From contig JBIKUX010000014.1 of the NCBI GenBank assembly GCA_044347345.1, positions 1 to 64,000 of the forward strand: 64,000 nt of DNA, written 5' to 3'. This stretch comes from Bdellovibrionota bacterium. GTDB taxonomy: Bacteria > Bdellovibrionota_C > UBA2361 > JBIKUX01. Each line of letters begins with the position of its first letter. Positions within the stretch are counted from its first letter, which is position 1. Of the stretch, positions 1 to 28,311 are shown piece by piece. Under the pieces are notes generated by a model. That model did not search any database. It worked only from the letters and a program-made list of their open reading frames with translations, and was not told the origin of the DNA. Position numbers and translations under genes: made by a program.

Positions 1-1472
1 ATCTTTTTAAGTTTTGCGACAATATCATCATCTAAGGCTTTCTTAGTTTTTAACTCTTCTAAAACATTTGGAAACTTCTTAGCTAAATGATCATGTAAAG
101 CAACTTCAAATTCACACAAAGAATCAAGGGGAGTAGAGTCAAGTAAGCCAGAAGTAACAGCAAAAATTGATATTATTTGCAGTTCAACGGGAAGAGGACG
201 GTACTGCGGTTGTTTAAGAATCTCAACAAGCCTCTCACCCTTTGCAAGCTGAGCCTGTGTTGCAGAATCGAGATCTGAACCAAATTGAGAAAACGCTTGT
301 TTTTCTCGAAATTGAGCTAAGTCTAACCTAAGAGTACCTGCAACTTTTTTCATTCCTTTTACTTGTGCCGCTCCCCCTACTCGAGAAACAGAGAGCCCCA
401 CGTTAACTGCTGGACGAATCCCCGCGTTAAACAAATCAGCTTCAAGATATATTTGCCCATCAGTTATCGAAATAACATTGGTCGGTACATAAGCCGAAAC
501 GTCACCTTCAAGAGTTTCGATTATTGGAAGTGCTGTCAGAGATCCAGCCCCAAGCTCATCGCTAAGCTTAGCCGCCCGTTCAAGCAATCGAGAATGCAGA
601 TAAAATACATCACCAGGATAAGCCTCTCTTCCAGGAGGACGACGAAGCAATAAAGACACTGAACGATATGCAACTGCGTGTTTAGACAAATCATCATACA
701 CAATCAGTGCATGCTGACCTTGCTCCATAAAATATTCACCTATTGAGCAACCAGTATACGGAGCTAGAAATGCTAAGGGAGCTGGCTCAGAGGCGGTAGC
801 CGCTACAACAATCGTATGATCCATGGCTCCGTGTTCACGAAGCTTTTCTACTACTTGAGCAACGCTAGAGCGCTTCTGCCCAATTGCTACATAGATACAT
901 ACAACCCCATTACCTTTTTGGTTAATTATTGTATCTAAAGCTACGGCCGTTTTACCTGTCTTCTTATCACCAATTATAAGCTCTCTCTGACCGCGCCCGA
1001 CTGGAGTCATGGCATCTATTGCTTTAATCCCAGTCTGCATAGGCTCATGCACTGATTTTCTTTTTACAATGCCAGGAGCCTTAATCTCAAGCCTACGAAC
1101 AGTATCAGAACGAATTTCACCTTTGCCATCTATAGGTTCGCCTAAAGCGTTCACTACTCGCCCAATAAGCGCACTACCAACTGGTACCTCGGCAATTTTA
1201 CGAGTTCGACGAATTGAATCTCCTTCGCGAACTTTATCGGTGTCACCCATTATGACTATACCAACATTGTCCTCTTCGAGATTAAGGGCTATTCCAGCGA
1301 TTCCAGAAGAGCCTATGTCAACCAATTCCCCCTGAGCTACTTTAGAAAGTCCGTAAGCTCTACAGATACCATCTCCTACGGAAATTACTGTACCAATTTC
1401 TTGCAACTCTTCGCGGGGAGTAAAATTAGCAATCTTACTCTTTAAAATTTCACTGATTTCTTCCGCCTTCAT
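1..1472 (-). CDS. atpA: F1 ATP synthase subunit alpha (3' end runs off the window)
   Basis: Not in the ORF track; translated by hand from ATG at 1472: [82 protein letters not shown]. Confidence 0.98.
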
Positions 1473-11010: not shown

Positions 11011-11997
11011 TTAGTGGCTGGTCATCTTCTCATATGCATGCACTATCCGTGCCACTAAAGGATGTCTAATTACATCCTCTGTTCCAAATCGCACCACCGA
11101 TATCCCACTTACTCCTTCCAGCAATGTAACTGCCTCTTGCAAACCCGACCGCACACCTGAAGGTAGATCAACTTGAGTAGGATCTCCTGTTATTATGTAT
11201 TTTGAGTTAAATCCCAGTCTAGTAAGACACATTTTCATCTGCATTGAGGTTGTATTTTGAGCTTCATCTAATATGACAAATGCTGAACGAAGAGTTCTTC
11301 CACGCATAAAAGCAAGAGGTGCTACTTCAATGGTTCCCTTTTCTATCAATTCTTGAGCTTTATCTGGATCAACCATATCGTAAAGAGCGTCATACAATGG
11401 GCGAAGATATGGATTAACTTTCTCTGCCATATCGCCCGGTAAAAAACCGAGACGCTCTCCTGCTTCAACGGCTGGACGGGCTAAAATTATCCGCTTTACA
11501 TCCTTACGAAGTAAAGCGGCTACGGCTGTGGCCATAGCAAGATAAGTTTTACCTGTGCCGGCTGGGCCAATACCAAATACGATATCGTTATTGCCGATAG
11601 CTTCTATGTATTGACGCTGATTAACAGTTTTTGGAGATATTGAGGCTTTTTTCCCGGCAATTCGCACCGATTCACGTAACATTTCCGTCAATCTAACTTT
11701 ACGATTAGCAGATAACATCGCAATCCCACGCTCTATATCACCGGGGAAAATTTGTTCTCCTAATCCTAAAACTTCAGCAAATTGCCTAAGAACATCTACT
11801 GCCAAATCAACTGCCGCATCCTGACCTTTTACAGTAAGCTCCAGAGGAGTCTTACCAATCTCTACCTCGAGTTCTCTTTCAATAATTCGCAAGTTTTCAT
11901 CTGTAGCTCCTGCAAGAAGCTGCATTATCTCAAGATATTGTACCGAAAAAGAAACTTCTTTAAAATTTCCGCGTGGATAGCTCCCTTTACTTCCCAA
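11011..11997 (-). CDS. PhoH-family ATPase (YbeZ-like)
   Basis: GPAGTGKTYLA, RPAVEAGERLGFLPGD, APLAFMRGRT, ILDEAQN; TTG start after an AGGAGG SD. Confidence 0.96.
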   Translation of the reverse strand: MGSKGSYPRGNFKEVSFSVQYLEIMQLLAGATDENLRIIERELEVEIGKTPLELTVKGQDAAVDLAVDVLRQFAEVLGLGEQIFPGDIERGIAMLSANRKVRLTEMLRESVRIAGKKASISPKTVNQRQYIEAIGNNDIVFGIGPAGTGKTYLAMATAVAALLRKDVKRIILARPAVEAGERLGFLPGDMAEKVNPYLRPLYDALYDMVDPDKAQELIEKGTIEVAPLAFMRGRTLRSAFVILDEAQNTTSMQMKMCLTRLGFNSKYIITGDPTQVDLPSGVRSGLQEAVTLLEGVSGISVVRFGTEDVIRHPLVARIVHAYEKMTSH

Positions 11998-12057
11998 GGT
12001 GCACTCCTCCTTTATACTCCCTGAGTCTTTACTTTAGCGCGGCTGAGCAAAACATCC

Positions 12058-12087
12058 TACTATGAAATTTAAGTAAATTTCATAGTA
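12058..12087. promoter_or_regulatory. Perfect 13-bp inverted repeat upstream of the phoH-like gene (operator or hairpin)
   Basis: TACTATGAAATTT-AAGT-AAATTTCATAGTA. Confidence 0.55.
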
Positions 12088-12244
12088 ATGTGTAAAATTC
12101 TCTTTAAACCACTGATTTAGCGATATTTTTAATTTATATATTAATCTTGAAACGAAAAGTCCTCATCAGTCTTTTCAATATCTTATACTTACCCCTAGGC
12201 GTTTGTCCTCTCTGATAGCTCTTTTCTATCGTCGCTAAGATGCT

Positions 12245-12438
12245 ACGGTATAGCTCAATCAGAAGAAGGGATATACAGAAACCAGCCGCCGAGCACAACA
12301 CGCAACAGGGTTAGAATGAAAAAAAGAGCAGATAATAAAACAGTAAAAGACGACCAAGTTACCTCAGGTCACTCTGTATCTTTAAAATCTTTAAGAACCC
12401 TCCCAAAGACGGTAGATACTAAAACAAACTATACCGTC
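12245..12438 (-). ncRNA. Candidate structured RNA (~195 nt, long 5'-3' paired hairpin; family unassigned)
   Basis: Nested complementary blocks with G-U pairs on the minus strand: ACGGUAUAGUUUG/UGAGCUAUACCGU, GGGAGGG/CCCUUCU, AUACAGAG/UUCUGUAU, GGUCGUC/GGCGGCU. Confidence 0.4.
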
Positions 12439-12461
12439 GACATTTACATCGGTCGCAATGA

Positions 12462-13859
12462 TTACGCCGGCATAGATAACTCAAGCAAAACTCTTCTTAA
12501 AGCATCTAACGCGGTATATGCCGCAAATGTCCTTGTTCTATCTCTATCCGCTGGAAAAAATCGACTTAAAACTATCTCTTCATTTGGACCACTGAGCGCA
12601 ACAAAAAAAGTACCTACCGGTTTTGGTGGTGTTCCTCCACTTGGACCAGCAATTCCTGTGATGGAAAGCCCCCATACCTCCTTAGGATTCGTTATTTCAG
12701 AGGATGAGGAATCTCCGGAATAAAGAGTATCGGGGTAGAAATTATCACTTCTCTGATCACTTCCCTGATCACTTCCCTGATCACTTCCCTGATCACTTCC
12801 CTGCACAGCTTCAATTTTTTTTTGCATTAGCAGAGATGTTGCACGATTGCGTATACATTGCGCTAGGGCAGTAGCACATTCAGCACTTACGGCTCCATAC
12901 TCATTAAGTATCTCTGAACTGACTTCAATAATTCCAGTTTTCCACCTATTATCATAAGCAACAATACCACCGTGAAATATCTCTGAAGCTCCTGCAAAGG
13001 CCGTAATAAGAGATGACAATAAACCACCTGTACAAGACTCAGCTACAGCAACAGTACCATTCCGTTTTTTTAAAGCTGAATGCACTACTTCAACTAACGA
13101 GATGTTTGGGTCAGTGCTAATTATGTAATCCTGACCAACGCGCTTGGAAATCTCTTCAACTAGGGAAAGAGGGATTAACGAGCGAGAAGTAAGTTGTAGA
13201 TGTACCTCTGGAAAGGCTGCGCGAAAGGATAACTGTATGTCTGAGGGGATTTCGAGAGTAGCAATCCTTTGTTGAACCTCGGATTCAGGAAGACCAAAAA
13301 GACGCCAAAAAAATTCATTAATTGGTGAACCTGCAATACCACGAGCATGAAGCTCAGGTACTACCGACTGTTCCATCATGGCGTAAAGCTCACGAGGCAC
13401 TCCAGGAAGAGAGCAGATAATATTTTCATTCTTCCGTAAAATAAATCCAGAAGCTGAGCCAACTGGATTTGGTATCACGCTACTATGCTCAGGGATCAAT
13501 GCTTGCTGACGAACTAAACCTTCACAAGACCGCCCACGAGCAGTATACCAGCTCATCAAATTACTAAGTGCTATTTTGTTTTCAACAAGTTCCTGATTAC
13601 AAAAAGCAGCGACAGCTTGCCGAGTAATGTCGTCACTTGTTGGCCCTATTCCACCAGTTATGATTATAAGAGAGGCACGTTTTTCCAGATATTCAAGCGA
13701 TTCTAGAATCTCATCTAATTTATCATCGCAAGACAGCGAGTATTTTACTGGAATACCAACTTTTTTTAGTAATTTTCCTAAATATTGTGAGTTACTATTT
13801 AGAATCCTACCATCTATAACTTCCGATCCGACTGTTAAAAGCGCACTTGTTCTTGCCAC
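12462..13859 (-). CDS. cinA: CinA-like protein (MocF pyrophosphatase domain + PncC NMN deamidase) with repeat insertion
   Basis: VGSEVIDGRILNSN, TGGIGPTSDDIT, LPGVPRE, AVAESCTGG, YGAVSAE, SITGIAGPSGG. Confidence 0.93.
   Translation of the reverse strand: MARTSALLTVGSEVIDGRILNSNSQYLGKLLKKVGIPVKYSLSCDDKLDEILESLEYLEKRASLIIITGGIGPTSDDITRQAVAAFCNQELVENKIALSNLMSWYTARGRSCEGLVRQQALIPEHSSVIPNPVGSASGFILRKNENIICSLPGVPRELYAMMEQSVVPELHARGIAGSPINEFFWRLFGLPESEVQQRIATLEIPSDIQLSFRAAFPEVHLQLTSRSLIPLSLVEEISKRVGQDYIISTDPNISLVEVVHSALKKRNGTVAVAESCTGGLLSSLITAFAGASEIFHGGIVAYDNRWKTGIIEVSSEILNEYGAVSAECATALAQCIRNRATSLLMQKKIEAVQGSDQGSDQGSDQGSDQRSDNFYPDTLYSGDSSSSEITNPKEVWGLSITGIAGPSGGTPPKPVGTFFVALSGPNEEIVLSRFFPADRDRTRTFAAYTALDALRRVLLELSMPA
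12744..12803. repeat. 12-bp tandem repeat x5 in cinA (QGSD)n
   Basis: ATCACTTC(T/C)CTG x5. Confidence 0.97.
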
Positions 13860-19472: not shown

Positions 19473-19659
19473 AGCCTTAGATACCCAGATCAAAATCAGA
19501 CAGACAGCAATTTCTTAATGATACGCTATGGGTAAAACATCAGAAATTCGCGCACCTTCGGGTTTCTAGCAAAAAAATAGCAACTTCTAACTTAATTAAA
19601 CGAACTATACTTAAATTAATTGATATGTATAACCTACGTCTATTAACGAGAGTAAAACT

Positions 19660-20100
19660 ATGCACCAGACACCTGTGATCCAAAAACCCTCAGACCCATT
19701 TGAGCAGATTTTATGGCATTTAGAACAGATTAATCAAAAACGCTCCTATCGTTGGCCACCCGAACAACTTGAACCACAAGTGAGAGAATTAGCAAGTTTA
19801 ATAGAGAGTCTTTATCACAATTGGCTTAAAATTAATAATCATAAAAATTCTACTCAAGAGCATTCTGAGTATTTATATTTTGTACTACCTTACGTAAGTT
19901 TTCGGTTACTAAACTATCCTTCCTCAAAAACAATAAATATCTTTGAAGCATCTTCCTCGCAAAAAAAGCAATTTCTCGCCTTAATGACAGACGAATTACA
20001 TGAACTTCCTGACTCAAACTTAGTAAGAGCTCTCCTCAAAGAATCTTTAAATACTTTACTCACCTTTCTTAAAAGTCTAAAACATCGCTGCGAACAATAG
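19660..20100 (+). CDS. Hypothetical helical protein
   Basis: 146-aa ORF with GAGAG upstream; convergent with the 819-aa gene; no recognised motif. Confidence 0.65.
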   Translation: MHQTPVIQKPSDPFEQILWHLEQINQKRSYRWPPEQLEPQVRELASLIESLYHNWLKINNHKNSTQEHSEYLYFVLPYVSFRLLNYPSSKTINIFEASSSQKKQFLALMTDELHELPDSNLVRALLKESLNTLLTFLKSLKHRCEQ

Positions 20101-20114
20101 GACTCTTCCTAAAT

Positions 20115-22574
20115 TCACGTGTTGTCCCTAAAAAGATCTTGAAAGGCGTAGGGTGGAGTCATAGTATAAAACCTATTATACCCTATCGAATTTAAAAATT
20201 GAGTGATTACACTCCAAACGGGATCCCGATTAAAATCTTGCTGGTCTGGAGAAATTAATACTACCTTTTTGCCCCTCCTTATTGCGCCAATTATTTCATG
20301 AACTGTTCCTATGCCTCCATAATGAAAAAAACAGGCTCCCAAACCTTCTAAAACTTCATGTAAGCGACGGTGAATAGTTTCTACCACTCTCAATTCCCCA
20401 TGACCTGATGGGACTTCTCCTGACTCTAGAATGAGAAGATTGGGCGTAGATACTCCCTTCGGACGAATAACTTGTAATTGACCTTCTTTATCTGCGCATA
20501 AGATAAAATTTTGACCAAAAAGACCCATCAAAGTCTGTGCTGGGAGATGATTTCCAGGCGGACTACCACCACCATCCCAAAATTCTGTAAATTTCTCAGG
20601 TTCAGGTATGAAAGGCACCTCTACAGTAAAGACTGGCAACTCTTCTAAAGTATCATCATTATTACCAATCTTCTCAATTAATTCGCGGCACTCTAGATCA
20701 CTTACCGTTTCCCCATTCATCTGCGCTGAAAAAGTAACTCCCGCAGCCCGATGAAGAGGTAAACCTTGCTGCATCATCTTTTGGATAAACTCTTTTGTGA
20801 AGGGAATTTGTTTCTTTTCATAACCTTCTGTAAGCCACTCTACCAAAGATTTCCAAAATTCTTCGTAATTTTCCAGAACTAATAGAGGCACCTCTGCTTT
20901 TGCAGCTCCAAAAAAGCCAAATCCTGATGGTATGGTACCTCTATTAACTCCTGAATCTATAAATTCAAGACGATCACATGATAAGTGGAACCCTTTATAT
21001 GGGAGAGGGCGCGATCCGAAATTTTTGAGTATACCATCAAAATCAAAATTTTCTGGGTTTACTATGAGTAAAGAATTTGTGTAAGGGGTTCTATGATTGT
21101 TGATAGTTGCCTGCAAAATTTCTTGTACTAAACTAACCCACCTATTATTTTGTTCATTTAGCATAATGAGGAGGTGCGCCTGATCACCCACTGCCGAATT
21201 TTGAATAACTTGTCCCAATACCAATTCAACAAATGCTAAGCCTTCTTCAATTTCGGTATTATTTGGCGGAATGAATAAAAAAACTGCACTGTTTATTAGC
21301 GGATCATTAAGAACTTTTTTGTTATGAAGTTCTAATGCTTCACTTGGTTTAAATTCGCTTAGTTCTGGTCTTAACTGACTAAAATTTTTTATTTCTGCCA
21401 GGATACCACAATTTCCGAGAATTTTTGTGCCTATAATCGCTACTCGAATCTGCTCTAAATAAGGTGGAAAGTATTGACCTGTAAACGTAGACACATCGTG
21501 AGTATAAATTAGCGAATAATTCAAAAGATTTTGGAAAGCTCTCTGAACCGCATATCCTCCATTTTCAACCGACTCGGGTAAAGGATTACCGTCTCTATCT
21601 ACAAACAAATTAGATAACTGCGCTAAGCCTAAAGCATTTGTTCCTGGGTTATCAGCAGGAGTTAGATAAGCTAAAGAAGTACCAGAATTATTGGGTAATT
21701 CTTCAAAAGAGCCATTAGGATAAAGCTTTACTCCAGAAATAAGTGAGTCAAACTTAAATACTAACCTACCTGTGGGTTCTCTTTCTTGTATTTGGAGCTT
21801 CTTTTGAAGCTCAGATAACAGATTAAACAATTCCTGCAATCCAAGATGACTAAAATATTTAGCAGCATGCTCACCAAATAATTTATGACAAACCTCATTT
21901 AGATCAATTTGTTCACCATTTTCTGCCTCTATACCATCAAGAGCATAATGATGCCAAGCTACGCGCTTAATTACCTCTATTAATTTATTTACTGAACTAT
22001 TTTGAAAACCTTTTAAATGAGAAGCTGTTAACTCAACAAACTCAACCCCTTCTTTTTCTTTTTCTTTTTCTAAAAGAAGATAAGTAGAGGTATCTTCTGC
22101 AACTATAACTATAGGTGTCCTAAGTAAATTAATAGCACATTTTCTTGCTTCCAACCTGCTCTTCTCATCAGGCATATAAGCTTCAATAAGTGGAGGAAGA
22201 AGTTGAGTTACCGGCAGAAGATTATTTTTATCTTCATCACTTGGTTGTGAAAACAACCTATTTTCTTGAAAAAATTCGGTAGCTTGTTCTACTGAAATAT
22301 ACCCTTTATCAGTAAGATTTTGTAATACTAATAATAAATGAGCATTAGGAGTGTTAGCAACTTGCTTGCAGCGTTCTAATTTTTGGTTAAGGTTACCTTG
22401 ATGGGTTTGATTCTCAATTGGTTGAGGAGAAATAAGCCAAGGGTGAATGTTTGTCAGTTCACAGAGAATATTCAAACAATACTGTTTAAAATGGTTAGAA
22501 GTTAAAAACAAAACTGGTACGTCATAAGGCTCATTTATTGGATTTTTTTCAACACTAGAGGTACAACTCAACAT
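20115..22574 (-). CDS. Multidomain protein: Ham1/ITPase-like N-terminal fold + degenerate SLOG-like middle + LOG-family C-terminal domain
   Basis: FLTSNHFK, E..T...N...K and VAEDTS (Ham1-like); FWDGGGS..LMG, ELRVVETIHRR and GGIGTVHEI (LOG-like). Confidence 0.7.
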   Translation of the reverse strand: MLSCTSSVEKNPINEPYDVPVLFLTSNHFKQYCLNILCELTNIHPWLISPQPIENQTHQGNLNQKLERCKQVANTPNAHLLLVLQNLTDKGYISVEQATEFFQENRLFSQPSDEDKNNLLPVTQLLPPLIEAYMPDEKSRLEARKCAINLLRTPIVIVAEDTSTYLLLEKEKEKEGVEFVELTASHLKGFQNSSVNKLIEVIKRVAWHHYALDGIEAENGEQIDLNEVCHKLFGEHAAKYFSHLGLQELFNLLSELQKKLQIQEREPTGRLVFKFDSLISGVKLYPNGSFEELPNNSGTSLAYLTPADNPGTNALGLAQLSNLFVDRDGNPLPESVENGGYAVQRAFQNLLNYSLIYTHDVSTFTGQYFPPYLEQIRVAIIGTKILGNCGILAEIKNFSQLRPELSEFKPSEALELHNKKVLNDPLINSAVFLFIPPNNTEIEEGLAFVELVLGQVIQNSAVGDQAHLLIMLNEQNNRWVSLVQEILQATINNHRTPYTNSLLIVNPENFDFDGILKNFGSRPLPYKGFHLSCDRLEFIDSGVNRGTIPSGFGFFGAAKAEVPLLVLENYEEFWKSLVEWLTEGYEKKQIPFTKEFIQKMMQQGLPLHRAAGVTFSAQMNGETVSDLECRELIEKIGNNDDTLEELPVFTVEVPFIPEPEKFTEFWDGGGSPPGNHLPAQTLMGLFGQNFILCADKEGQLQVIRPKGVSTPNLLILESGEVPSGHGELRVVETIHRRLHEVLEGLGACFFHYGGIGTVHEIIGAIRRGKKVVLISPDQQDFNRDPVWSVITQFLNSIGYNRFYTMTPPYAFQDLFRDNT

Positions 22575-22695: not shown

Positions 22696-23247
22696 TTATT
22701 TAATAAATAAAACTTCATTCGGAAGTTCATTTGAGTGCCCAGTTCCAGCCTGCCCAGTTCCAGCCTGCACAGTTCCAGACTTAAGTTCAATATTTTTAGT
22801 AGGAACTACTTTACTAAGCTCAGAGATAGCACAAAGAATAGCAGAGACTCCGTCACCATTGGCTAGATTACTAGTTATACTAAAAACAATTTTACTCCCG
22901 ACATCAGGGGTAACACATGTTAACAAACCTCGGTCACACAGCAGTTCAACAGCCTTATCAGCAACAAGAATATATAAGAGCACACCATTATTAGTGGCAG
23001 TGTCCCAAATATCAAAAAACCTAAATAAGTGCCTTGCTCGACTTATAATAGGGTCATTTACACATAACTCACTAACTGTAAGGCGAGACTCAATAATTAT
23101 TCTAAGCTCCGCACTATGCTTTTGTTCAAATAATTTTATTGCATCAGTTAATTCTGATAAACGCTCAGATGGAAAAAGTCTCCTAACTTTTGATTCAGTG
23201 GTACCAAAATGTTTCAATACACTGGCAAAAAAATTTAATCTTACCAT
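22696..23247 (-). CDS. TPM-domain protein
   Basis: AIKLFEQKHSAELRIIIE, RARHLF, IWDTATNNGVLLYILVADKAVELLCDRG, NELPNE. Confidence 0.9.
   Translation of the reverse strand: MVRLNFFASVLKHFGTTESKVRRLFPSERLSELTDAIKLFEQKHSAELRIIIESRLTVSELCVNDPIISRARHLFRFFDIWDTATNNGVLLYILVADKAVELLCDRGLLTCVTPDVGSKIVFSITSNLANGDGVSAILCAISELSKVVPTKNIELKSGTVQAGTGQAGTGHSNELPNEVLFIK
22736..22780. repeat. 15-bp tandem repeat x3 (SGTVQ-AGTGQ-AGTGH)
   Basis: TGCCCAGTTCCAGCC x2 plus TGCACAGTTCCAGAC. Confidence 0.92.
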
Positions 23248-24107
23248 TTACCTGAGGCTCCCCCACCGGAAAAAGAACCTCCACCTCCGCTAAAACCACC
23301 AAATTTATCACCAAAGCCAATGCCACTGTGATCTATTGAAAATCCACCATGACGGCTCCGTCTAAAAGAACCACCGCCAGCAGATGAATTAAAAATTGAA
23401 AAAAACAAAATAGCTAAAAATATAACTAAACCAGTGACAAAAGATATAGTCAACAAGCCCAGTACTCCAAACAAAGTAGCACTAGCTAATGAAGCAAATC
23501 CTTGTCCAATTAACCCTGCAAGAATTTGAAAAAGGATTACCCCCATCAATACAAAAAACACGACAATCTGCCCATTTGTCCCAAAATTTCCCGTCTTATT
23601 ATCTGGCAACGGGAGTTCTTCACCTCTAACTAACTTTTCAATCGCTAAGACTCCGCTCATTACTGCTCCTCCGTAATCTCCTTTCTTAAGATACGGAATC
23701 ATAATGTCCTCAATAATACGTTTAGCATAAACGTCTGGAACAGCTCCTTCTAAACCTCGTCCCACTTCAATACGAACAGACCTATCATTAGGAACTAATA
23801 ATACAATAATTCCATCATCTATCTTACTACGACCAATCTTCCAAGAAGCAGCTACTCTATAAAGAAATGGTTCAATAGCCTCACCCTCAAGAGTGGGCAC
23901 AGTTAGCACAACAAGTTGAGTACCCTTCTCCTTTTCAAGCTGAGCTAATCGCCCGCTGAGAAAATCCTTTACCTCTGTTGAAAAAACAGTCGCTGTATCA
24001 ATCACTCTGCCAGTAAGCTCTGGCACCGGCACCTCTCCAAATACCAAGGAGCTCAGCAAAAGTGAGCAACTAAGAACACAACAGCGTATAAGCCAGTACA
24101 ATTTCAA
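23241..24107 (-). CDS. YgcG-like TPM-domain membrane protein
   Basis: Signal peptide, VPELTGRVID, WKIGRSKIDDG, RIEVGRGLEG, Gly-rich tail GGGGSFSGGGASGKW. Confidence 0.93.
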   Translation of the reverse strand: MKLYWLIRCCVLSCSLLLSSLVFGEVPVPELTGRVIDTATVFSTEVKDFLSGRLAQLEKEKGTQLVVLTVPTLEGEAIEPFLYRVAASWKIGRSKIDDGIIVLLVPNDRSVRIEVGRGLEGAVPDVYAKRIIEDIMIPYLKKGDYGGAVMSGVLAIEKLVRGEELPLPDNKTGNFGTNGQIVVFFVLMGVILFQILAGLIGQGFASLASATLFGVLGLLTISFVTGLVIFLAILFFSIFNSSAGGGSFRRSRHGGFSIDHSGIGFGDKFGGFSGGGGSFSGGGASGKW

Positions 24108-24119
24108 CCCCTACCTCCT

Positions 24120-24773
24120 CTATTTTGAAAAATCAACAGAGGGTGGTTTTGATACAGCAGCCTCATTCTCTACGGTAAACTGTGGCTTGGGCTGATTGCC
24201 AAAAATTTTTGCGGTGATTAGGGTAGGAAAAGACCTTATTGTTGAATTAAATTGATTTACAGAGCGAATATAATTTCCACGCGCTACAGTAATGCGATTC
24301 TCAGTTCCTTCTAGTTGAGCTTGTAGGTCTCGAAATCCCTGGTCAGCTTTAAGCTGTGGATAATTTTCAGCTATAACAAGCAATCGAGACAAAGCACCAG
24401 ATAAGTCAGCTTGAGCCGCTTGAAATTGAGCAAGTTTAGTCGGGTCATCCGGTACGTCGCTTTGAAGATTAAGGGAACCGACCTTAGCTCTAGCCTCGGT
24501 AACTTCCGTAAGAACTTTCTCTTCGTGAGCGGCGTATCCTTTCACGGTATTAACAAGGTTAGGAATTAAATCAGCTCTCCTTTGATACTGGTTTAACACC
24601 TCTGACCAAGATGATTTAGTCTCTTCATCTAACTGCTGTATTTTATTATAACCACAACTAGAAGACGTGCAGGCTACCACTAAACAAAGCGCCACTAATG
24701 TTATTTTAACCAATCCATCTGAGCCATAAATCGATGGTCGTAAACTGAAAAACCGAGAAGGAATAATTTTCAT
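24120..24773 (-). CDS. lemA: LemA family protein
   Basis: CGYN, QYQRRADLIPNLV, ENYPQLKA, LEGTENRITVAR. Confidence 0.96.
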   Translation of the reverse strand: MKIIPSRFFSLRPSIYGSDGLVKITLVALCLVVACTSSSCGYNKIQQLDEETKSSWSEVLNQYQRRADLIPNLVNTVKGYAAHEEKVLTEVTEARAKVGSLNLQSDVPDDPTKLAQFQAAQADLSGALSRLLVIAENYPQLKADQGFRDLQAQLEGTENRITVARGNYIRSVNQFNSTIRSFPTLITAKIFGNQPKPQFTVENEAAVSKPPSVDFSK

Positions 24774-25314: not shown

Positions 25315-26392
25315 TAAAACTAGTAGCAATAAAACTAAGGTCGAAAAAACTAAAAATATGACCTCACAATCCATAAAATGGATTATTCGTAGTGTGATAC
25401 TGCTTGGGATTTTTTGGGTAGGATGTAGTTACATCTTTTTTTTCGTTCAACACTCGTTTCTTTTACCTATAACCTCGGTAAATCAAGAAGAACTAAAATT
25501 CCTCATAGAGATACCTAAAAACTCAGACTTTAAAAAAGTAGCCAAAAACCTTGAACAAAAAGGCTTAATTCGTCATTGGTGGACTCTGTATCTACTCGCT
25601 CGACTCACCGGACAAGACCGAGATCTATCTGCTGGAGAATTTGAAATATCCTCTGCAATGAACGTTCCTGAGATATTGAATCGTCTCATAAATGGTCCAG
25701 CCTTTAGACGCCGAGTGCTTATTCGTGAAGGTACAAAAGTAGATGAACTACCGCCACTTTTTGAAATGGCTGGCATAATATCAGCGCTGGAACTTAGAAA
25801 AGCATTATCAGATAAAAAGCTGCAAGTAGATTTAGGAATCCCAGCTGAAGCGCCTAGCTTTGAAGGCTATCTTTTCCCAGATACTTATTTTTTCTCAAGA
25901 CCAATTGCAGGAAAAGAAATCTTAAGACGCTTGATTTTAGAAGGAAGAAAAAAATGGAGTCCTGAATGGGAATTAGCTAGACAAAACAAGCAATTTTCTC
26001 TTCACCAAATACTAACCTTAGCTTCTATTATTGAGAAAGAATCGGGTAATTTCAACGAACAGCCACTCATTGCATCTGTATTTTATAATCGCTTATCACG
26101 AGGAATGAGACTCCAAAGTGATCCTACTGTAATTTATGGAATCCCAAATTTTAATGGCAATCTAACTCGTTTTGATTTAACAAATCCCTCTCCCTACAAC
26201 ACTTACGTTATAAATGGCTTGCCACCTGGCCCGATAGCTAATCCAGGAACTTCAGCCATAAAAGCGGCTCTTTTTCCCCAAACAACTCTTTATCTATATT
26301 TTGTTGCAGATGGTACCGGCAAGCACATATTCTCAAAAACACTCGCCGAACATAATCAAGCAGTAAACTTTTATCAACGGAAAAACTCTTGA
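25286..26392 (+). CDS. mltG: Endolytic transglycosylase MltG
   Basis: EGYLFPDTY, LASIIEKE, VFYNRL..GMRLQSDPT, SPYNTY..GLPPGPIANPG; start uncertain (25286 or 25358). Confidence 0.95.
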   Translation: MKTKEKIPPNKTSSNKTKVEKTKNMTSQSIKWIIRSVILLGIFWVGCSYIFFFVQHSFLLPITSVNQEELKFLIEIPKNSDFKKVAKNLEQKGLIRHWWTLYLLARLTGQDRDLSAGEFEISSAMNVPEILNRLINGPAFRRRVLIREGTKVDELPPLFEMAGIISALELRKALSDKKLQVDLGIPAEAPSFEGYLFPDTYFFSRPIAGKEILRRLILEGRKKWSPEWELARQNKQFSLHQILTLASIIEKESGNFNEQPLIASVFYNRLSRGMRLQSDPTVIYGIPNFNGNLTRFDLTNPSPYNTYVINGLPPGPIANPGTSAIKAALFPQTTLYLYFVADGTGKHIFSKTLAEHNQAVNFYQRKNS

Positions 26393-28311
26393 ATAAAACG
26401 GATCCATCTAATCTTCTTCGCAAGGTTGCGCGGCGATTATTATTCCAAACCACGCGCGAAAAAATTATGATTGCTTTTGCCCTCTGTTTAGGGGGCGGAT
26501 TAAGCATTTTTTCCGTCTGCGCTCTATTTATAAACTTCAACACGCTGAGTAAATCATGGTGGTGGCCTTTTACTCTAGGTATGCTAGGAATTGGCGTAAC
26601 AATACTTATAATATGGCTCAAAAAAGGCTTTAAGCTAGATCTCTACAGCGCGGCAAATAAAATTGATAACACCTTCAATCTTAAAAACCGCCTAGGAAGC
26701 TTTGTTGCTCTTGAAATCGCTAAGTCATCACAAAATAATCATTCCTCCAACAAACATACTGCAATCATACAATCCGTCATCCTAAATCAGCTCAACAGTT
26801 CTTTACCCAAAGAAGCAATAATACTTAAAAAAGTATCGCCTCTTAACTTATCAAAAGCTGAGCGAAGATACTTAATTTTTATCGTATTTGTAAGTTGTAT
26901 TTTGTTAGCTTTAATGGCTTTTCAAGCAAATGTATCTATAGTTACTAATAATTTGCTTCCTAATTTAGAATTATCACTTCCTCACCCATTGTTACAAAAT
27001 GAGACTCGAACAGCCGAGGCTGTTCAGGAGATTAAAACCTTACTTGAGAATCACCCTGACCTACCTGAAGCTGTTAAAAATGCCTTTACTAATCTTAGTC
27101 AAGAACTAACAAAGCCAATCCCAGAAAATGAAAAAGTAATAACTACGTTACAAAACACTTTAAATGCTATAGATACAGCTAAGGCATCAGATCAACAGAA
27201 AAAGTCCGAACCCTCTCCTCGTCCTACATCTATTCCTAGATCTACTCCTATATCTACTCCTACATCTATTCCTATATCTACTCCTACTCTACCGTCTTCT
27301 CCTACTAAAGAAACCATTAGTACGCCGACCCCCAATTCAAATTCAAATTCATCACAGAAATCACAGGATCCTGATCAAAAAAACTCAGCTCAAAATTCAA
27401 GTAATAACCAAGAGGAAAAGAGCCAGCAAGGAGATGCAAATACCAAAGAAGCAGATCAACCAAATAATGCTGGCAAAGAGGCTGAAGACACTTCCAAAAA
27501 CTCGCAATCAGAAAAAGGAGGGGAGAATAAAAATAAAGGGGAGCAAGATAAAAAAAGTAATGGTAACGGTGAGAAGAAGGAAGAAACAGCCAATAAAGAT
27601 GGTGGTAAAGCCGATGACCAAAATCAAAAATCCGATTCAAAAAATAATTCAAATGCAAAAGCACTCGATAAAGCCTCTGAGCTTGCCCAAAAACTCTCAG
27701 GCTCTAAATCAGAAAGCACCCCTCAAGAAAATAATAGTTCAGGTCAAAAACTAAGCGAATCAAATACCCAATCACAAGAAAATAAGGCTGGCGAAAAAGA
27801 TTCAGACAATAAAGACAATAAAGAGCAAGAAAAGGGAAATAACAAAAACAACGGAGATAAACCAACTGACTCAAACTCAAACAACAAACAACCATCCCCC
27901 TCGTCAACTTCCTCATCAACTCAACAAGACGAAGAGTCACAAAATAGTAACGATAGCCCTAAACCTCCTAGCTCATCAGAGCCTCGAGATGCTCCCACAC
28001 TCGGAGGTGAGGCAAACTCTAAACTCACCGACTCAGAAAAAGAAGCAAAGAGATTTATAGAGGATGGAGAAACTCCTCTAAGCTCTGATGAATTTGAACG
28101 AAACAAGAGATTTAAAGAGTCAATTATACAAGAAAGTGAGGATCAAATTGATCCATCTAAAGCTACTGAGGCAAGCGGAGAGATTGAAGGACTGGGCAGT
28201 ACTCTTCCAAAAACCAGTATTGAGAAAATTCGCCGTGAGAAACCTGAGCTACTGAATAGAAGTAGCAATCAGGAAATTCCCCTTGAGTATAAAGATACTT
28301 TACAAGATTAA
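26389..28311 (+). CDS. Membrane protein with long low-complexity S/N/Q/K/E region, MoxR-cluster associated
   Basis: 3 TM segments, a helical region, a P/T linker, a long disordered tail and C-terminal EIPLEYK; first gene of the MoxR cluster. Confidence 0.75.
   Translation: MNKTDPSNLLRKVARRLLFQTTREKIMIAFALCLGGGLSIFSVCALFINFNTLSKSWWWPFTLGMLGIGVTILIIWLKKGFKLDLYSAANKIDNTFNLKNRLGSFVALEIAKSSQNNHSSNKHTAIIQSVILNQLNSSLPKEAIILKKVSPLNLSKAERRYLIFIVFVSCILLALMAFQANVSIVTNNLLPNLELSLPHPLLQNETRTAEAVQEIKTLLENHPDLPEAVKNAFTNLSQELTKPIPENEKVITTLQNTLNAIDTAKASDQQKKSEPSPRPTSIPRSTPISTPTSIPISTPTLPSSPTKETISTPTPNSNSNSSQKSQDPDQKNSAQNSSNNQEEKSQQGDANTKEADQPNNAGKEAEDTSKNSQSEKGGENKNKGEQDKKSNGNGEKKEETANKDGGKADDQNQKSDSKNNSNAKALDKASELAQKLSGSKSESTPQENNSSGQKLSESNTQSQENKAGEKDSDNKDNKEQEKGNNKNNGDKPTDSNSNNKQPSPSSTSSSTQQDEESQNSNDSPKPPSSSEPRDAPTLGGEANSKLTDSEKEAKRFIEDGETPLSSDEFERNKRFKESIIQESEDQIDPSKATEASGEIEGLGSTLPKTSIEKIRREKPELLNRSSNQEIPLEYKDTLQD
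27223..27288 (+). repeat. 12-bp degenerate tandem repeat (PTSI/PIST)
   Basis: CCTA(C/G/T)ATCTA(T/C)T x5.5. Confidence 0.85.

Follow-up and report, generated by a model that had tools for sequence, protein, structure and literature searches.

An orphan protein of an uncultured freshwater Bdellovibrionota bacterium with a probable divergent LOG-like domain at its C terminus

Canonical LOG proteins (PF03641), which include plant LOG3 and LOG8 and single-domain proteins of bacteria, consist of one domain of ∼190 to 220 residues, and an uninterrupted glycine-rich GGGxxGxMG loop near the N terminus of this domain is a trait of the family. In the larger multidomain protein PpnN (YgdH) of Escherichia coli, a (p)ppGpp-regulated nucleotide 5′-monophosphate nucleosidase, the nucleosidase domain is flanked by regulatory domains, and a published report describes how the PAG domains gate the active site and gives the motif PGGxGTxxE for both LOG3/LOG8 and PpnN (PMC6717881). 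Arg241 and Glu264 of PpnN are named among the catalytic residues in a preprint (bioRxiv 10.1101/2025.04.13.648610). Here we describe a gene on the minus strand of a 64,000-nucleotide stretch of the genome of a Bdellovibrionota bacterium (assembly GCA_044347345.1, contig JBIKUX010000014.1, positions 1 to 64,000; hereafter, the window). The gene, which starts with ATG and runs uninterrupted to its stop codon, encodes a protein of 819 residues whose C-terminal ∼280 residues likely adopt a LOG-like fold.

The protein resembles PpnN in the presence of a LOG-type Rossmann domain, here a predicted one, within a larger multidomain protein and in having the conserved Arg 23 residues ahead of the Glu in PGGxGTxxE (R737 and E760; Arg241 and Glu264 in PpnN). 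It differs from PpnN in that neither PAG1 (DUF4478) nor PAG2 (DUF3412) was found in the protein or its pieces at an E value of ≤10, in that its extension of ∼540 residues is wholly N-terminal, and in that an insert of ∼100 residues lies inside the LOG domain. Furthermore, its Pfam score is below the cut-off, and no sequence homology to PpnN chains in PDB was detected. What aligns with canonical LOG proteins is the core segment of strand and helix that carries the Arg and GGxGTxxE. However, a canonical LOG was present in 31/31 genomes searched, including a copy in the genome of the host itself (contig C56, positions 539 to 943), whereas the 819-residue protein was found in one genome only and has Tyr in place of Pro in the motif, an interrupted GGG loop, and the large insert. 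A first-pass annotation of the window had read the protein as a Ham1/ITPase domain, a second, degenerate SLOG unit, and a LOG domain in one chain. The strings that it quoted were all present at the residues given (14/14; Table 1), and D161, R737, and E760 were as it stated.

The C-terminal domain and its possible activity

PF03641 (LOG, "Lysine_decarbox") was the sole Pfam family that matched the protein, at residues 722 to 765 (E value, 0.0011; 19.6 bits for the whole protein), and the match rose to 23.1 bits (E value, 9.3e-5) when residues 540 to 819 were scanned alone. In hhalign comparisons with a profile of 30 LOG proteins from this and related genomes, residues 716 to 796 aligned with a score of 26.0 (P = 0.0047), which was reached by 0 of 90 shuffles. 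A broader profile of 53 units, which adds 23 LOG units from large LOG proteins of the relatives, aligned with residues 707 to 797 over 83 columns (P = 0.00066). When the 1,962 open reading frames (ORFs) of the genome were ranked with HMMER against two LOG hidden Markov models (HMMs), the protein was third and then second; the canonical LOG was ahead of it both times, and one other ORF was ahead of it the first time.

The ESM Atlas model of residues 541 to 819 matched a 204-residue LOG protein with a template-modeling (TM) score of 0.70, with 177 of the 279 residues aligned. All five structure rows returned for this region (5/5) were LOG or PpnN clusters, the fourth and fifth being of the PpnN type, and the ten best feature matches with an assigned family were all LOG/SLOG (score, 0.82). 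In the hhalign alignment with the LOG profile, R737 fell on the family Arg and E760 fell on the Glu of PGGxGTxxE. The stretch YGGIGTVHE at residues 752 to 760 fits this motif at every defined position except the first Pro, and the 23 residues between R737 and E760 equal the spacing of the PpnN pair. Together, the Pfam match, even though below the cut-off, the hhalign alignments, and the TM score of 0.70 agree with the earlier proposal of a LOG-like C terminus with Arg737 and Glu760 at the catalytic positions. The proposal of an insert of ∼100 residues inside this domain was likewise upheld. The insert, between GFFGAA and FWDGGGS, had no sequence match to anything and is consistent with the ESM model because 177 of 279 residues align.

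These results suggest, tentatively and at somewhat less than an even chance, that the protein is a LOG/PpnN-type nucleoside-5′-monophosphate N-glycosidase in which the insert, together with the N-terminal 540 residues, regulates or gates the active site. Judging from the sequence, the predicted LOG domain with its R737/E760 pair would hydrolyze the N-glycosidic bond of a substrate resembling a nucleoside monophosphate (NMP), and the predicted products would be a base and ribose-5-phosphate; we infer both the catalysis and the substrate class. By analogy with the PAG domains of PpnN, the N-terminal ∼540 residues and the insert might have a part in regulating or gating that site or in oligomerization.

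A number of observations weigh against a LOG-type glycosidase. Both Pfam scores (19.6 and 23.1 bits) are under the curated cut-off of 27 bits, the probabilities assigned by hhalign to the LOG match were 7.5 to 27%, and the mean predicted local distance difference test (pLDDT) value of the ESM Atlas model was 0.47. The AlphaFold2 (AF2) single-sequence model of residues 540 to 819 was unusable (pLDDT, 39.5), and a fold search with it against PDB gave 0 matches at an E value of ≤0.001, with the LOG chain 3sbx at rank 17 (E value, 0.53). No LOG chain was matched in a PDB sequence search. Tyr replaces the first Pro of PGGxGTxxE, and the GGG at residues 668 to 670 is separated from LMG by 11 extra residues, in a segment that neither Pfam nor hhalign aligned. 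With the GGG...LMG loop divided in this way, the domain may bind phosphate differently or no longer bind it at all. Beyond the domain itself, nothing recognizable was found over 540 of the 819 residues, and when phmmer was run exhaustively against 1.84 billion representatives, the sole match was a 167-residue fragment of the protein itself, with no LOG protein. Two RNA libraries, each from a different study, yielded contigs that match segments of the gene exactly (window positions 21573 to 21725 and 21770 to 21950 in one; 20618 to 20874 in the other). As DNA may also be carried in libraries of this kind, these contigs hint at expression only weakly, and the stretches of the gene that they leave uncovered say nothing either way. 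The DNA sequencing runs that were compared were identical to the window, with no sequence variants seen.

The interrupted loop and the low Pfam score would also fit a diverged binding domain. It is therefore conceivable that the LOG-like domain is a noncatalytic ligand sensor of the SLOG type, as in ThsA and TRPM channels, which would recognize a nucleotide-derived signal and control an N-terminal effector, possibly in defense or signaling. The ESM feature matches, which include SLOG cluster 4 and LSDAT_prok clusters, are in line with such a sensor, as is a protein with no detectable relative. Genes that evolve fast and are confined to one lineage are typical of conflict systems. Nevertheless, a sensor seems unlikely. 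The catalytic Arg and Glu are kept, and Pfam, NCBIfam, and PADLOC searches found no effector family in the N-terminal part. There were 0 PADLOC matches at an E value of ≤10 (PADLOC-DB 2.0.0, a release that predates Kongming), and the neighboring genes are housekeeping genes; thus, the defense role suggested in the first-pass annotation was not substantiated. Repeat scans around the gene revealed no flanking repeats that would point to a mobile element, and there was no phage, plasmid, or viral-contig match. The C terminus belongs, like the SLOG domain of Thoeris ThsA, to the wider SLOG superfamily, but the 819-residue protein lacks SIR2 and any other known effector, has no match in PADLOC, and does not lie in a defense context.

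The N-terminal and middle regions

The first 370 residues had been proposed to form a Ham1/ITPase domain, which, fused to LOG, would convert (d)NTP to (d)NMP for subsequent cleavage of the NMP to the base. Such a fusion might channel a nonstandard nucleotide or might sense it in the manner of Kongming KomB, which two abstracts describe as a Ham1-type sensor of dITP, in agreement with the mention of KomB as a Ham1-like sensor in the proposal. The likeness to Ham1/RdgB/ITPA proteins and KomB was limited to a short in-register resemblance over the first two Ham1 motifs. With a Ham1 profile built from 19 proteins of this and related genomes, hhalign aligned only residues 18 to 77 (score, 20.2; P = 0.046; P = 0.023 when residues 1 to 150 were used alone). 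These residues were in register with the first ∼70 Ham1 columns, with T/S-x-N-x-x-K on the first motif and E-x-x-T-x-x-x-N-x-x-K on the second. The sole stretch that HMMER aligned with the Ham1 HMM, residues 56 to 76 on HMM positions 55 to 75, was in the same register.

However, this score is at the level of chance. Among shuffles, 2 of 90 reached it, as did 9 of 195 natural 370-residue N termini taken at random from the remaining 668 long ORFs of this genome, the best of which scored 25.5. The HMMER score of the protein against the Ham1 HMM was −1.4 bits, at rank 317 of 1,962 ORFs. Residues 141 to 370 gave P values of 0.46 to 0.47 with the Ham1 profile, and IVAEDTS was off the acidic DDSG column. 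At an E value of ≤10, Pfam, NCBIfam, and PADLOC found nothing in residues 1 to 200, 140 to 370, or 1 to 370, and the whole protein had no Ham1 or Maf match. A six-frame search of the genome with PF01725 (Ham1p_like) and PF02545 (Maf) at the same threshold returned only the canonical genes, RdgB (contig C6, positions 1275 to 1841) and Maf (contig C59, positions 11922 to 12503). The genome already has a canonical RdgB.

Structure predictions gave no indication of a Ham1 fold either. The ESM model of residues 1 to 365 had no usable feature match and no Ham1-like structure among its matches, which were generic alpha/beta proteins (YchF, a methyltransferase, an amidohydrolase, and UDG) with TM scores of ≤0.31. 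The AF2 single-sequence model of residues 1 to 370 (pLDDT, 37.8) yielded 0 matches at an E value of ≤0.001 and no ITPase among the 50 matches listed; the AF2 fold searches of this region and of residues 540 to 819 carry no weight because both models were unusable. A PDB sequence search with the N-terminal and middle regions returned two weak matches only (E values, 1.4 and 2.2), a MarR regulator and a putative serine hydrolase, and no Ham1 protein. In addition, the Ham1 scheme needs insertions of ∼240 residues, with ∼45 motif residues spread over 330 residues for a domain of ∼190 residues, and the motifs of the C-terminal half of Ham1 are missing, as the first-pass annotation itself had stated.

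A Ham1/ITPase N terminus was thus not supported, given silent Pfam models, a profile score at chance level, and the lack of a Ham1-like match to the ESM model, and a Ham1-LOG fusion is highly improbable. The proposed conversion of nucleoside triphosphate to base within one chain loses its footing as well, as this idea rested wholly on the Ham1 domain. The accompanying statement that the architecture is not a characterized family stands; a limited literature search found no description of a Ham1/ITPase-LOG fusion.

The second SLOG unit that had been proposed for residues 376 to 510 was also not supported. In comparisons of the middle region with three LOG profiles, hhalign P values were 0.54 to 0.84, and in the best local alignment SAVFLFIPPNNTEIEE was in register with the PGGxGT strand of LOG. 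A search for internal repeats among four regions of the protein found none, the only matches being residues common to overlapping slices. A degenerate SLOG unit thus had no statistical support, given these P values and the lack of a repeat shared with the C-terminal domain.

The N-terminal ∼540 residues as a whole had no detectable relative among ∼15 billion proteins. There is a slim possibility that they form one or two new folds that act on or detect a nucleotide, such as a triphosphate or a modified one, and feed or gate the LOG site. In that case, the protein would be a new type of single-chain machine for degrading nucleotides to bases or for sensing nucleotides, and not one built on Ham1.

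Distribution, coding character, and the large LOG proteins of relatives

The claim that the protein is an orphan was confirmed by searches of clusters, representatives, and genomes of the order and phylum. No homologue was found in a word-indexed search of 5.8 billion clusters. Among 40 genomes of the same order, there were three noise matches only (E value, 0.0012 with three internal stops; 0.197; and 0.212), and 0 of 123 other genomes of the phylum had a match. Pattern scans of genome contigs and viral contigs and tblastn searches of phage and plasmid collections gave no match to the protein, and a search of PHROGs gave a single family of unknown function (E value, 0.18). No other member of the family to which the host genome belongs was in the genome set searched.

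Within this 2.53-Mb, 68-contig genome the gene has one copy. Its GC contents at the first, second, and third codon positions are 0.51, 0.34, and 0.25, and its codon usage diverges from that of the genome by 0.122, the lowest value among 15 neighborhood genes compared. By codon usage and GC periodicity, it looks like a coding sequence native to the host genome. The same protein, identical in sequence, is annotated on 11 contigs in public collections, and 15 of 24 sequencing runs listed contain at least half of the sampled words of the gene. All 15 are lake or freshwater metagenomes from 2017 to 2024, and nine of them are possibly the source of the assembly. The gene is real and lineage-restricted, and its product is probably cytoplasmic.

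The absence of relatives and the restriction of what is recognizable to a core of ∼80 residues raise the alternative that the ORF is a decaying or functionless remnant of a LOG family gene, perhaps of one with tandem LOG units, which has drifted past recognition and whose frame stays open without a maintained function. The lack of a clear ribosome-binding site and the low confidence of the structure predictions throughout would agree with this. However, an uninterrupted frame of 819 codons would be unexpected without selection in a genome of 40% GC, the periodicity is GC1>GC2>GC3 and codon usage is like that of native genes, the catalytic residues are kept, and the sequence is identical across many lake samples from 2017 to 2024 and in RNA-library contigs. 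A remnant is thus distinctly unlikely.

Large LOG proteins are found in the related genomes. In 7 of 30 such genomes, LOG matches lay within open frames of at least 400 residues, several with tandem LOG units, and the large proteins that were fetched (Table 1) had one full LOG unit and a partial second unit, sometimes with inserts. The 810-residue protein of locus L070 had only three homologues among the 5.8 billion clusters. SurE was beside one of the large LOG genes, and a ribonucleotide reductase was beside another. These proteins are from the same order as the 819-residue protein and share with it similar sizes, LOG units with inserts, and small families, but their LOG units are at other positions, and the N-terminal and middle regions of the 819-residue protein do not score as LOG. 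Alignment of the 819-residue protein with the L070 family by hhalign gave a P value of 0.038, and residues 1 to 540 gave P values of 0.19 to 0.79 with each of ten large LOG proteins. No detectable link to the tandem-LOG proteins was found, as only the PGGxGT strand aligned.

These findings show that large, fast-diverging LOG domain proteins are a habit of this order. This makes a LOG-derived origin of the 819-residue protein plausible, and the protein probably arose as a fast-evolving offshoot from the varied large LOG domain proteins of related genomes.

Genomic setting and implications

Upstream of the gene, on the same strand, is a triad that encodes LemA and two TPM domain proteins of 288 and 183 residues (window positions 22696 to 24773). 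The triad was kept in 8 of 8 related loci fetched, with a different gene next to it in each, and in none of the eight did the gene after the triad resemble the 819-residue protein. Of ten neighboring ORFs scanned, nine matched housekeeping families and one matched nothing. Neighbors besides the triad and the unmatched ORF encode an ABC-2 exporter pair, GalE, a methylpurine glycosylase (MPG), an M23 peptidase, and RuvX, and further genes, recognized by eye only, are presumably those for MltG, MoxR, and DUF58. Scans for promoters and terminators around the gene found sites no more frequently than in shuffled sequence.

The neighbor that matched nothing, an ORF of 146 residues on the plus strand (window positions 19660 to 20100), lies downstream and converges on the gene across a 14-bp gap. 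No Pfam or PHROG family matched it and 40 related genomes contained no counterpart, which makes it a second lineage-specific ORF; an RNA-library contig spans positions 19601 to 19756 at this ORF. Within the 3′ end of the 183-residue TPM gene are three tandem 15-nucleotide units (positions 22736 to 22780) that encode a Gly/Thr/Gln/Ala repeat. Elsewhere in the window, a 465-residue ORF on the minus strand (positions 12462 to 13859), CinA-like by eye only, has a fourfold GSDQ repeat insertion in its second half. A 640-residue ORF on the plus strand (positions 26389 to 28311), between the MltG-like gene and the MoxR/DUF58 cluster (named by eye), begins with hydrophobic segments, after which comes a long low-complexity region rich in Ser, Asn, Lys, Gln, and Pro.

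Table 1. Coordinates of the gene, its parts, and large LOG genes of related genomes (window positions unless a locus or residues are named)
Feature	Position	Strand	Basis or remark
Whole gene	20115..22574	-	819 codons + stop; single copy in genome
Residues 1-370, proposed Ham1 domain	21465..22574	-	No Pfam, NCBIfam, PADLOC, or PDB match
Residues 371-540, alternating strand/helix pattern by eye, no family assigned	20955..21464	-	No Pfam match
Residues 541-819, probable divergent LOG/PpnN-type (SLOG superfamily) Rossmann-like domain	20118..20954	-	ESM Atlas model and Pfam
Residues 559-664, putative insert of ∼100 residues from first LOG strand/helix to GGG loop	20583..20900	-	Inferred
Residues 716-796, LOG core with R737 and YGGIGTVHE (E760)	20187..20429	-	hhalign; Pfam stretch 722-765
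AT-rich spacer, 121 bp, TPM domain gene to start codon	22575..22695	-	No clear Shine-Dalgarno sequence, read from sequence
Strings of the proposed Ham1 domain	Residues: LFLTSNHFK 22-30, ENQTHQGNLNQK 54-65, IVAEDTS 157-163, FGEHAAKY 233-240, QRAFQNL 344-350		
Strings of the middle region	Residues: RVAIIG 377-382, SAVFLFIP 429-436, LLIMLN 468-473		
Strings of the LOG part	Residues: GFFGAA 553-558, FWDGGGS 665-671, GVSTPNLL 707-714, ELRVVETIHRR 727-737, GGIGTVHEI 753-761, KKVVLI 769-774		
Large LOG gene, 810 residues	L070:2664-5093		
Large LOG gene, 755 residues	L071:2276-4540		
Large LOG gene, 563 residues	L072:2258-3946		
Large LOG gene, 568 residues	L073:2155-3858		
Large LOG gene, 557 residues	L074:2137-3807		
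Large LOG gene, 494 residues	L075:2806-4287		

What can be demonstrated is one divergent known domain joined to sequence with no recognizable relatives, in a single uncultured lineage. Orphans with one recognizable divergent domain are common in uncultured lineages, and the general interest of this one is modest until a structure or an activity is available. If the LOG-like domain is active, the LOG/PpnN family would include a very divergent member with a large, presumably regulatory region. Considered alongside the tandem-LOG proteins of the relatives, such a member would suggest that enzymes that cleave nucleotides have undergone an unexplored diversification in an uncultured freshwater lineage.

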